A stretch of 6,577 nt of DNA from a virus: UHGV virus genome UHGV-1437364. One strand, written 5' to 3'. Positions 1,054-1,772 of this stretch are shown piece by piece. Numbering within the stretch: the first letter of the stretch is position 1; the number at the start of each line of letters is the position of its first letter. The position numbers were made by a program, and so were the translations under genes. Under the pieces are notes generated by a model that searched no databases, was not told the DNA's origin, and was given only the letters and a program-made list of their open reading frames with translations.

Positions 1054-1596
1054 TTACTCGCCTTTCTTCTGTAGCAACTTTTCCGGTACGTTTCCGGTTG
1101 TTTCTTTCAAGTAATCAGCCAGTATCTGTGGGAGGTTGTCGGCAACTCTGGCACTGGCATTACAGGCTTTAACCACTTCCCTTTTAAGCCTATCCAGCAT
1201 GGCGGGGGTAATCTGTGGGAAGCTCCTTTGCATAGTAAGCGGGAGGCTGTCCATGATTGATGAAATCTGACTCGCCAGCTTTGAAAGCGCGTACAGGCAA
1301 AACTCAGTATCAATCACGTCACCGCGATCGCGCTCGTTTTTAAGTTCCTGCGCCTCCGCCTGTGCTGTCAGTAATCTGATCCTGACTCGTAAGAGTTCAT
1401 CATCATCAATATCGCCTTTGTCGTTTGTAAGCTGGCTAATTGCATTGTTAACCCTATTGTCTATCACGCTGGCAACATCGTAAAACGCCTCACGGCCTTT
1501 ACGTTCAACGGGAGTCACTCCCCACTTGTCGAACGCTGTCGCACTTACACGGCAGCTTTTCGCCATGTTTTTTTTGTTCATCAGGTGCGATTTCAT
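1054..1596 (-). CDS. Terminase small subunit, lambda Nu1 family
   Basis: The C-terminal two thirds align clearly with lambda Nu1: RLLTAQAEAQELKNERDRGDVIDTEFCLYALSKLASQISSIMDSLPLTMQRSFP versus RLTRAQADAQELKNARDSAEVVETAFCTFVLSRIAGEIASILDGLPLSVQRRFP. The N-terminus is related but divergent: MNKKNMAKSCRVSATAFDKWGVTPV versus VNKKQLADIFGASIRTIQNWQEQGMPV. The true start may be Met6 (1581..1579), which aligns with the Nu1 N-terminus. Confidence 0.85.
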   Translation of the reverse strand: MKSHLMNKKNMAKSCRVSATAFDKWGVTPVERKGREAFYDVASVIDNRVNNAISQLTNDKGDIDDDELLRVRIRLLTAQAEAQELKNERDRGDVIDTEFCLYALSKLASQISSIMDSLPLTMQRSFPQITPAMLDRLKREVVKACNASARVADNLPQILADYLKETTGNVPEKLLQKKGE

Positions 1597-1772
1597 TAAT
1601 ACACCAACTTAATTACTGCTTCAGGTTGGTGTATTGTTTGCATCTTTCCCTTTTCATTCATAAAGATAGAGCAAACAACAAAACCACCACCACCCCCCTG
1701 AAAAAGCTCATAAATAGCGAAAAACCGCGAGGTCGCCGCCCCGTAACGGGCCATAATTCCAGGAAGGACCCG
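1597..1772 (-). other. Lambda-type cos site (cosQ-like, cosN, divergent cosB), minus orientation, directly upstream of the Nu1-like gene
   Basis: On the minus strand this reads GCGGGTCCTTCCTGGAATTATGGCCCGTTACG-GGGCGGCGACCT-CGCGGTTTTTCGCTATTTATGAGC. cosN is at 1741..1730. The first ~35 bp after cosN match the lambda left end, after which the sequence diverges (G-rich tract GGGGGGTGGTGGTGG, then the palindrome). Confidence 0.75.
1598..1635 (-). promoter_or_regulatory. Perfect 11-bp inverted repeat AATACACCAAC-N16-GTTGGTGTATT abutting the TerS start codon
   Basis: Arms at 1598-1608 and 1625-1635 are exact reverse complements. The element sits in the divergent cosB-like leader immediately 5-prime of the TerS ATG (1596..1594). 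Confidence 0.4.

Follow-up and report, generated by a model that had tools for sequence, protein, structure and literature searches.

A probable island-borne small terminase and its N15/Monarch-related cos site in an EcCICFT073-family PICI

Redirection of packaging in cos-type Gram-negative PICIs has, to our knowledge, a single current explanation, namely an Rpp adaptor that needs the small terminase (TerS) of the helper. The Rpp proteins (RppA/B/C) are 139-154 aa long, carry an N-terminal Nu1-type winged helix-turn-helix (wHTH), lack the tail that binds the large terminase (TerL) and redirect the terminase of a lambdoid helper to an island-specific cosB, with the helper TerS as the bridge (PMC6739421, PMC9026076). 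Their recognition helix is lambda-like (NRTTIRAW), and repeated R boxes have not been reported for the cosB of Rpp-type islands. The logic that we propose below for a Gram-negative island is that of the SaPI TerS of Staphylococcus aureus, where a satellite small terminase and a helper large terminase together package satellite DNA (PMC6092414, PMC6739421), although the SaPI system differs in its headful/pac packaging, its unrelated TerS family and its separate interference protein, Ppi.

Among phages, the closest described systems are those of lambda, of N15 and of Monarch, a group of N15-like lambdoid prophages described by the Feiss laboratory (PMC4669245). The R3 site of N15 has been mapped to bp 48-59 from the cohesive end, with bp 54-59 being the most critical (PMC4669245). 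Membership in the N15/Monarch specificity class is defined here by the recognition helix QAFDKWGV, as in N15, and by an R3 with a strong match to GAGGTTGTTGTT at bp 48-59. Our Monarch example is the E. coli O121:H19 prophage in locus L018, which is assigned to the group by its published description only.

The stretch of DNA analysed here (the window) comprises 6,577 nucleotides of the UHGV virus genome UHGV-1437364. We read it, with a probability of roughly 0.6, as the replication-packaging half of an EcCICFT073-family PICI, and positions 1054-1596 as the island's own small terminase. The island of 11-12 kb is base-for-base identical to the copy in E. coli Nissle 1917 except for two indels. 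In Nissle 1917 its genes lie on a single strand, in the order integrase (beside tRNA-Pro), HTH regulator, Icd-like protein, DUF4222 protein, primase, SSB, gpE-like protein, gpD-like protein and TerS, with iteron-like GGTAGA repeats downstream of the primase gene and without tail or lysis genes. A Gram-negative PICI is recognized by a length of ~10-20 kb and the absence of lysis and tail genes; its integrase occupies a tRNA or another specific att site, all its genes point the same way, and it carries an alpA-type regulator and pri-rep with the origin downstream. Size, integrase/att and gene content of the island agree with the EcCICFT073 family. An AlpA-like protein of 127 aa fills the slot of orf137 in other islands, but the two proteins proved unrelated. 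No large terminase gene is annotated or detectable in the island, and the cos sites present without a TerL suggest that it would be packaged by a helper phage. At least 487 complete E. coli genomes, Nissle 1917, ATCC 25922 and O157:H7 among them, carry the cassette, which shows no substitutions relative to complete genomes. Sibling satellites are embedded in lambdoid prophages, and the synteny is kept in satellites of Enterobacter and Citrobacter. The features of the window on which the argument rests are as follows.

832-874, plus strand: second cos (cosQ at 832-838, cosN at 863-874), inverted relative to the first cos and pointing into the 3' end of terS
912-1027, plus strand: phage-type cosB of the second cos, with R3, I1-like, R2-like and R1-like boxes
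1054-1596, minus strand: island TerS, 180 aa, Nu1 family (intact ORF, Pfam match)
1598-1609, minus strand: candidate R1' box AGTTGGTGTATT, the right arm of a palindrome, abutting the start codon and conserved only in the E. coli clade
1624-1637, minus strand: candidate R2' box ACAATACACCAACC, inverted relative to R3' and R1', at bp 105-118 from the cohesive end
1674-1691, minus strand: candidate R3' box GGTGGTGGTTTTGTTGTT, at bp 51-68 from the cohesive end
1730-1741, minus strand: cosN core GGGCGGCGACCT, identical to the lambda/phi21 cohesive end
1765-1771, minus strand: cosQ-like GGGTCCT of the TerS-proximal cos
1774-1796, minus strand: intrinsic-terminator-like hairpin GGCCGGAGAAATCCGGCTTTTTT, read off the sequence, between the orf137 stop codon and cosQ
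4000-4245, minus strand: third cos, of the Stx2-phage class (terminator, cosQ, cosN-like element and cosB-side flank)

The TerS protein is laid out as a wHTH DNA-binding domain (DBD, aa ~5-56) with the recognition helix TAFDKWGV at aa 20-27, a linker ~20 aa shorter than that of lambda, a core (aa 72-124) that is conserved and a tail (aa 125-180) that is variable and contains the motif LPQILADYL. The Pfam family Phage_Nu1 (PF07471) aligns to aa 33-148 with E=2.3e-23 and 83 bits, which is above its curated cut-off of 30 bits. A search of the PDB with the single sequence returned nothing relevant, whereas a profile search retrieved residues 1-98 of lambda TerS (6hn7_B; E=0.006) in an alignment starting at aa 6 of the island protein; a match to RppC appeared in neither search. 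Structure prediction of the N-terminal domain, which the earlier note had proposed as a check, gave a DBD-only model with a pLDDT of 80 and the element order beta-a1-a2-wing-a3, for which the best Foldseek matches were TerS DBDs, followed by MerR-family wHTH proteins (probability ~1.0, E~0.03). Profile match and DBD model agree on the wHTH fold of the Phage_Nu1 family; an AlphaFold model of the full-length protein (pLDDT 59) was too poor for use.

Hundreds of contigs carry the ORF intact, and its dN/dS is 0.12-0.18 overall, 0.05 in the DBD and ~0.2 in the tail, which makes the DBD the most constrained region and the tail the fastest evolving. Judged by sequence, this is a real ORF of the Nu1 family on which purifying selection acts. 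As in a phage operon, terS lies 145 bp 3' of cosN, but no overlapping large terminase gene comes after it: gpA follows in lambda, and TerL, W and portal genes follow in the Monarch-type prophage. On this comparison, the missing TerL is a satellite-specific departure from the phage operon. A scan of 780-1900 found no sigma-70-like promoter for terS, and the terminator sits upstream of the gene; a simple terminator scan picked out nothing but the cosN hairpins, overlooking the evident hairpin at 1774-1796. The Rfam search gave zero matches, and a scan of GTDB genomes with exact peptide patterns found nothing.

The island protein has its domains in the order of lambda Nu1 and, compared with it domain by domain, is 40% identical in the DBD (aa 6-48), 9% in the linker, 57% in the core (aa 72-124) and 30% in the tail (aa 125-168). 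The earlier note had described a C-terminal half highly similar to Nu1 behind a divergent N-terminal region, a contrast that is modest at these values. Because the core reaches 57% and the tail 30%, the conserved part is the central oligomerization core, not the tail that contacts gpA; as the latter is the least lambda-like domain and evolves fastest, binding to lambda gpA specifically is not implied. That SATAFDKW (aa 18-25) aligns with SIRTIQNW (aa 15-22) of lambda in the region of the recognition helix was confirmed, but the N-terminal domain is not novel: its DBD is of N15/Monarch type, with 63% identity to both N15 gp1 and the TerS of the Monarch-type E. coli prophage, against 40% to lambda and 30% to phi21. 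The core is 51-57% identical to the TerS of lambda, 21 and N15 and is the most phage-TerS-like segment. The tail reaches 30% to the tails of lambda, N15 and 21 and 43% to that of the Monarch-type prophage; this predicted TerL-binding tail has the expected length and the motif (L/I)Px(I/L/M)(L/A)xxY(L/I), which is common to lambda and N15 and absent from phi21, at only 30-43% identity to phage tails. Across the whole protein, the Monarch-type prophage TerS is the closest phage-borne relative (50%, E=9e-58), and N15 gp1 reaches 46%. A recent capture of terS from a sequenced phage was considered and discarded, the best TerS in the phage collection being 46% and the best prophage TerS 50% identical.

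Membership in the Rpp family was likewise rejected. An Rpp protein is recognized by a length of 139-154 aa, the lack of a tail, a conserved R21-T22 in helix a2 and similarity to RppA/B/C. The island TerS has 180 aa, a full tail and the helix TAFDKWGV, and is 16% identical to the Rpp-type protein of island L004. The likeness to Rpp lies in the shared N-terminal Nu1-type wHTH, in the island family, in a slot that follows the gpE and gpD homologues and is framed by two cos sites in inverted orientation (PMC6739421, PMC9026076), and, by analogy, in the putative task of bringing the terminase of a lambdoid helper to a cosB specific to the island.

The cosB in front of terS follows a recognizable plan. 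R3' lies at a distance from the cohesive end comparable to lambda R3 (bp 50-65) and N15 R3 (bp 48-59), and R2' has its counterpart in lambda R2 at bp 111-126, so that the R3/inverted R2/R1 geometry of lambda is retained, together with identical cosN and cosQ, while the sequence of the boxes is unrelated to that of lambda. Block identity of the cosB (1597-1729) to lambda and 21 is 1-4/10 beyond bp 50, and phage cos sites match the TerS-proximal cos only over cosQ-cosN-I2, its first 83 nt. The cosB had been said to lack lambda-like R sites and to have a perfect palindrome instead. It indeed contains no R boxes of lambda or phi21 type, but it does carry repeated boxes in the geometry just described. 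The palindrome exists as a perfect 11-bp inverted repeat (AATACACCAAC at 1598-1608 and GTTGGTGTATT at 1625-1635, with a 16-nt spacer), for which the rough chance expectation in ~130 bp is 1e-3; it is, however, no substitute for R sites but the pair of predicted boxes R2' and R1' itself, and beyond the E. coli clade conservation is limited to its left arm.

R3' is proposed as the primary binding site of the island TerS. Each of 13 TerS-bearing satellite loci has a single copy of this box, at bp ~50-68, and no further copy turned up in ~195 kb read on both strands. R2' is conserved in 8/9 satellite cosBs, and the distance from cosN to the ATG stays constant across satellites at 145-150 bp. Within the window alone, the box consensus gave 7 matches where 2.2 were expected, a weakly significant excess (7 was reached by 3/200 shuffles), and R3' fits this consensus only if 2 mismatches are allowed. 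Between R3' and R2', a scan with the IHF consensus found no convincing site in the E. coli clade; a match at the position of lambda I1 is present only in helper-embedded satellites.

With the Monarch-type prophage, the island shares the Nu1-family TerS with an AFDKWGV helix, the R3 at bp ~50, the inverted R2 at bp ~105-118, an R1 and the lambda-type cosQ and cosN, and the R3 regions match at 22/28 in register. The two differ in the distance from cosN to the ATG (145 bp here against ~228 bp in the phage), in a T->G change common to all three island boxes (GGTTGTTGT versus GGTGGTGGT / GGTTGGTGT) and in the first residue of the helix, which is Q in Monarch/N15-type phages (QAFDKWGV) and T in satellites (TAFDKWGV). 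N15 is alike in its near-identical helix and in an R3 that lies equally far from the cohesive end and has a G/T-triplet sequence; it differs in a simple cosB with R3 only (plus a remote rR2), in its cosN GGGCGGCGTCCG, in the lambda-identical tail IPGLLNDYI and in being an autonomous phage with its own TerL. Since the island helix has T for Q as its first residue, and R3' has G for T at two of the critical positions (bp 54-59), TerS and cosB are a derivative of the N15/Monarch class rather than a member of it. The change shared by the boxes and the matching change in the helix suggest a co-evolved, private DNA specificity.

The behavior of the satellites points in the same direction. Their TerS is best conserved in the DBD, where residues N7-R48 are almost all invariant, and least in the tail; DBD and 18-bp R3' box are kept together even in satellites whose TerS is only ~59% identical. 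One and the same DBD/R3' combination accompanies four distinct cosN cores and tails that diverge from one another, and in one satellite (L005) tail and cosN are both altered around an unchanged DBD. The earlier suggestion of an island TerS with a specificity of its own holds as far as this co-conservation of DBD and R3' goes; its origin in the N15/Monarch class means that this specificity is not unrelated to R sites.

The terS gene is flanked by two inverted cos sites of different specificity, an arrangement that the earlier note had missed: the segment 885-1050, which it offered as a comparison site, is part of a second complete cos with R boxes of phage-21/lambda type. Its R3 (AAGCATGTCGGTACTT, 912-927) matches phi21 R3 at 14/16 positions; an I1-like IHF site (13/15) lies at 934-948, and the R2-like (969-984) and R1-like (1012-1027) boxes both contain the core TGTCGTTTC. 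Two exact cosN cores with cosQ stand in inverted orientation, and the search gave 3 matches where 0.03 were expected. An assembly artefact as the source of the inverted pair was rejected, as complete genomes show the same arrangement and spacing. At the third cos, a terminator (4213-4235), cosQ (4204-4212) and the cosN-like element ACGGGGCGGGAGGCGCGG (4166-4183) are followed by a cosB-side flank of ~170 bp with 90% identity to the stretch just in front of the TerS gene of an Stx2 phage. The terminator-cosQ junction of the first cos recurs there. A decayed lambda cos was dismissed as its origin, because the region aligns along its length with the cos region of an Stx2 phage.

From these observations we propose the following mode of action. 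TerS dimers would bind R3' and R2', and the conserved core together with the lambda/N15-class tail (PhiPxPhiPhixxYPhi, with Phi a hydrophobic residue) would recruit the helper large terminase, which may then nick the lambda-type cosN and package island concatemers toward TerS. As lambda, 21 and Monarch/N15 all have other boxes than the island, the helper TerS would presumably use the island cos poorly, and the island TerS the helper cos, making the site private. N15-specific terminase does package lambda DNA (PMC4669245), so some leakiness within the class is possible, which could make the site less private than proposed here. The inverted phi21/lambda-type cos and the Stx-type cos would serve as helper-mimic entry sites, through which a helper could package the island even if its TerL is not bound by the island TerS, and we infer that the inverted orientation would prevent a terminase which has begun at either cos from stopping at its partner at a distance of 870 bp. 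By its sequence, the island appears to have modified an N15-type phage recognition code such that the helper motor would load island DNA and not the phage's own. That TerS steers a helper TerL to the island cos, as had been supposed, agrees with cosQ and cosN standing without a TerL, with the full-length tail and with the purifying selection; the engagement of TerL is the predicted part of it. More broadly and more tentatively, at somewhat below even odds, the locus of the EcCICFT073 family may hold two interchangeable forms, the Rpp adaptor and a complete Monarch/N15-derived TerS, the latter re-coded through T->G and Q->T into a private signal that replaces the helper TerS outright. The cosN core and the tail would be swapped per helper around a fixed DBD/R-box pair, with one or two further helper-mimic cos sites (phi21/lambda-, Monarch- or Stx-type) in a fixed inverted or distant arrangement.

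The protein may instead act in the manner of Rpp, forming mixed oligomers with the helper TerS through the core and the DBD dimer interface; island boxes would then be read while the helper subunit contacts TerL, and recognition of the helper cos would be blocked simultaneously. This mode is established for Rpp (PMC6739421, PMC9026076), terS fills the exact rpp slot of EcCICFT073-type islands, and a core as phage-like as this one (51-57% to lambda, 21 and N15) next to a tail poorly conserved relative to every phage would suit it. We nevertheless consider it rather unlikely, because a full-length tail with P156 and Y162 invariant among satellites is retained here, unlike in Rpp, the tail is still under purifying selection at a dN/dS of about 0.2, and the co-variation of tail and cosN around the fixed DBD of L005 is that expected of a tail contacting a helper-specific partner.

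Improbable, in our judgment, is a role mainly in interference or regulation, in which TerS would autoregulate via R1' over its own ribosome-binding region, or bind the helper cosB or titrate the helper TerL, with the island packaged via the phage-type cos sites. It would account for R1' abutting the start codon; the two extra phage-type cos sites need no island factor, lambda DNA is recognizable by an N15-class TerS (PMC4669245), and one of the two cos sites of EcCICFT073 is dispensable (PMC6092414). Yet R1' is unconserved outside the E. coli clade, while R3' and R2' are conserved at packaging-relevant distances from cosN. Helper-embedded satellites carry the TerS-proximal cos only, which must be their packaging site since they have no other. 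A defective lambdoid prophage in decay, now without function, or an artefact of assembly could be read into the sequencing adapters at the window ends and the two indels relative to Nissle 1917, but conservation and purifying selection effectively refute it: the cassette has no substitutions relative to complete genomes and 487 genomes carry it, the ORF is intact in hundreds of contigs at a dN/dS of 0.12-0.18, and Enterobacter and Citrobacter satellites keep the synteny.

Set against the Rpp explanation, the terS locus would be an alternative: where other islands of this family have rpp, it has a small terminase that is complete and whose binding code can be identified. Because three boxes and one helix residue have changed together with respect to a known class of phages, the lambda-family recognition code becomes directly testable by swaps of a few bases and one residue, and the locus is a compact natural experiment on terminase specificity. 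If the two-form proposal is true, a single 11-kb island could be packaged by up to three terminase classes. In practice, the locus bears on the spread of islands with defence or virulence cargo, and on whether lambdoid, 21-type or Stx phages, resident or incoming, can mobilize the DNA of Nissle-based therapeutics. At the left cos of related islands, the Rpp-type island L004 matches the N15-class R3 definition at 12/12 positions, and the left cos of the O157 island shows, among phages, only a partial match (72%) to the cosB/nu1 region of SerU-LTIIb.

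The small terminase (TerS) of the island was described in the earlier note as Nu1-like, and this holds: the 180-aa product of the ORF at 1054-1596 is a member of Pfam Phage_Nu1, with just aa 33-148 aligned to the family model. The nearest phage TerS in a search of 50,697 phage records is gp1 of N15 (46%). Within the DNA-binding domain (DBD), identity to N15 gp1 reaches 63%, and the helix reads TAFDKWGV in the island and QAFDKWGV in N15. The segments SATAFDKW and lambda SIRTIQNW, previously set side by side, do align. The proposed contrast with lambda Nu1, a conserved C-terminal half and a divergent N-terminus, is weak: identity is 40% in the DBD, 57% in the central core and only 30% in the C-terminal, TerL-contact tail; the linker (9%) carries a ~20-residue deletion. 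To judge from sequence, the N-terminal domain is a winged-HTH of the type found in N15 and the Monarch group of N15-like lambdoid prophages. The structure prediction that had been proposed for this region, run as a DBD-only model (pLDDT 80), returned the winged-HTH order of elements, and the best PDB match to a profile of the island proteins is the N-terminal fragment of lambda TerS (6hn7_B, E=0.006). In Foldseek, TerS DBDs rank first, followed by MerR-type regulators; since the E-values are weak (about 0.03), these structural matches serve as supporting evidence only. The features discussed here are as follows:

359-535: three direct repeats of ~19-27 nt (CGAAAATATCAACGGGTTA), spaced by 99 and 54 bp, near the island's far end
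863-874, plus strand: cosN of the left cos
1054-1596, minus strand: island TerS ORF, 180 aa, Phage_Nu1, E=2.3e-23
1730-1741, minus strand: cosN of the TerS-proximal cos
1802-2215, minus strand: 137-aa ORF between the decoration gene and the cos
~4000-4245, minus strand: third cos, Stx2-phage class, between the SSB gene and the capsid module
~4985-5225: GGTAGA/TCTACC repeat cluster, about ten copies in both orientations, just downstream of the primase gene

Nine TerS/cosB pairs were compared, drawn from E. coli islands and from Enterobacter and Citrobacter satellites whose TerS is only ~59% identical; cosN and the start codon lie a constant 145-150 bp apart across them. The TerS-proximal cosB is free of lambda R boxes, as had been noted, and of phi21 R boxes, but it possesses boxes of its own at the positions of lambda R3 and R2. 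The 18-bp box R3', GGTGGTGGT(T/G)T(T/G)GTTGTT, lies at bp ~50-68 (R3 occupies bp 50-65 in lambda and bp 48-59 in N15). It occurs once per TerS-bearing locus (13/13), every time in TerS orientation, and nowhere else on either strand of about 195 kb; none of lambda, phi21, N15, the Stx phage and the Rpp-type island contains it. R2', an inverted box CAATACACC(A/C)AC at bp 104-117, is kept in eight of the nine pairs; lambda R2, likewise inverted, lies at bp 111-126. A third box, R1', adjoins the start codon and is retained in the E. coli clade only. The palindrome reported for this cosB is a perfect 11-bp inverted repeat (1598-1608 / 1625-1635), but it corresponds to the R2'/R1' pair, and given the distribution of these boxes, its left arm alone is general.

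The closest phage-borne relative of the island TerS (50% identity over 167 aa, E=9e-58; 43% in the tail) is encoded by a lambdoid prophage of E. coli O121:H19 with the gene order lysis genes, cos, TerS, TerL, W, portal. This prophage combines the N15 helix with a three-box cosB, and by description it fits the published 'Monarch' group (PMC4669245). Aligned in register, the R3 regions of island and prophage are identical at 22 of 28 positions. All three island boxes share a T-to-G change, phage GGTTGTTGT becoming GGTGGTGGT or GGTTGGTGT, which falls within bp 54-59, the most critical block in N15 (PMC4669245). N15 and the prophage have Q as helix residue 1; at this position all satellite TerS proteins carry T without variation. 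We infer that the box change and the Q/T difference co-evolved and altered the specificity.

Within the satellite lineage, the emphasis on a conserved C-terminal half is reversed: TerS is most strongly conserved in the DBD, with N7-R48 nearly all invariant (dN/dS ~0.05), and varies most in the tail (pN 0.54 versus 0.16 for the DBD in distant comparisons). One DBD and R3' box are combined with four cosN cores, GGGCGGCGACCT and three others, GGGCGGCAGACG (L005, from E. coli TK3896), GGGCGTCAGCGT (satellite locus L014) and GGGCGGCAGACT (satellite locus L015). In L005, the altered cosN is accompanied by a diverged tail and by an HK97-like protease-capsid fusion gene replacing the gpE/gpD pair. The four cores with one DBD/R3' combination, together with the tail divergence of L005, thus suggest that this private recognition pair is fixed, and that cosN and tail adapt to the large subunit of the helper.

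In EcCICFT073-type islands, the adaptor Rpp reaches TerL via the helper TerS, which it requires (PMC6739421, PMC9026076). In one such island, L004, all neighbours are the same and the TerS slot is filled by a 146-aa protein, which differs from the island TerS (16% identity) in its Rpp-type helix, NRTTIRAW, and in having no tail. The island TerS tail carries the lambda/N15-class motif PhiPxPhiPhixxYPhi (Phi, hydrophobic residue), with P156 and Y162 invariant, unlike the phi21 tail (VGGWIDDF). Because this motif is retained, direct recruitment of a lambda-like TerL by the island TerS is plausible. Mixed oligomers with the helper TerS would be equally compatible with the conserved core. Separately, the Rpp-proximal cosB of L004 (7725-7833, minus strand) contains ACACCACCACCAC at bp ~54-66. 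At equal distance from cosN, this is the (GGT)n core of R3' in reverse complement; a simple repeat of this kind could match by chance, or the match could hint that Rpp and TerS sites are related.

The island TerS is flanked by two complete cos sites, inverted to each other; EcCICFT073 is likewise reported to have two, with Rpp dependence in only one (PMC6092414, PMC6739421). The left cos has phage-type boxes (R3 14/16 to phi21, I1 13/15, R2/R1 boxes with a lambda-like core), and its match to phage cos sites spans ~150 bp. Its class varies among islands, every version being internally consistent: purely phi21-type in satellite locus L017, TCAGATCC in 3/3 boxes in the O157 island, and Monarch-type in the Rpp-type island (12/12 with N15 R3; 77% identity to the prophage cosB). 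The third cos comprises a terminator, cosQ and a differing cosN-like core, ACGGGGCGGGAGGCGCGG. About 170 bp of it are 90% identical to DNA just upstream of the Stx2 phage TerS, and it aligns full-length with the cos region that immediately precedes TerS-TerL-portal in that phage; the left-hand cos of L005 is of a related type. An intrinsic terminator hairpin-cosQ junction, GCCGGAG(A/C)AATCCGGCTTTTTT plus (G/A)CGGGTCCT, precedes both co-oriented cos sites (1774-1796 and 4213-4235, minus strand) and is also present in L004; late transcripts would end just short of each co-oriented cos unless antiterminated. We propose that the extra cos sites provide helper-mimic entry points for terminases that the island TerS cannot use, and that the inverted arrangement of the two sites flanking TerS would keep a terminase loaded at either of them from ending packaging at its partner.

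The TerS homologues of Enterobacter and Citrobacter (59% identical; L007-L011, L015, L016) belong to satellites within the major capsid gene of lambdoid prophages, with FI, FII, Z, U, V, G, T and H following a truncated Phage_cap_E. These satellites are the 'helper-embedded PICIs' whose E. coli prototype was described as lacking terS (PMC10111431). They carry the TerS-proximal cos only, which argues that this is the primary site. Small terminases in PICIs are already known, being counted as a core component in surveys (PMC10085698) and marked as terS homologues in some islands on the first Gram-negative PICI maps (PMC6092414). Our literature search found no prior analysis of a Nu1-type TerS from a cos-type PICI, of its binding boxes or of the N15/Monarch relation.

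The window, 6577 bases in length, shows zero substitutions and two indels relative to the chromosomal island of E. coli Nissle 1917, ATCC 25922 and relatives. Compared with Nissle 1917, a 17-bp deletion at ~630 (CGCGGATCCGTATGTTG missing) shortens a conserved 93-aa ORF to 57 aa, and in the third cos 1 bp is deleted at ~4190, between cosQ and the cosN-like core. Either sequencing error or real variation could account for these differences. Positions 1-47 and 6531-6577 form a 47-nt perfect inverted repeat that includes Nextera transposase adapter sequence (…GTCTCGTGGGCTCGGAGATGTGTATAAGAGACAG), so the window represents either a tagmentation fragment or a contig whose adapters were left untrimmed, and its ends are not natural. 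In Nissle, the ~11-12 kb island has an integrase adjoining tRNA-Pro, then small regulators, a DUF4222 gene, primase, SSB, a gpE-like capsid gene, a gpD-like decoration gene, the 137-aa ORF, 'terminase small subunit' and the 93-aa ORF, with every gene on one and the same strand; these ~11-12 kb hold no tail, lysis or large-terminase genes. Such a layout is that of a Gram-negative PICI of the EcCICFT073 family (PMC6092414, PMC10111431). The 137-aa ORF has no Pfam match and is unrelated to the AlpA-like 127-aa protein found in its place in other TerS-type islands. The direct repeats at 359-535 overlap no convincing gene. The GGTAGA/TCTACC cluster resembles the iterons of a replication origin for the island, and PICI papers locate the origin at the same position, just downstream of the primase gene.
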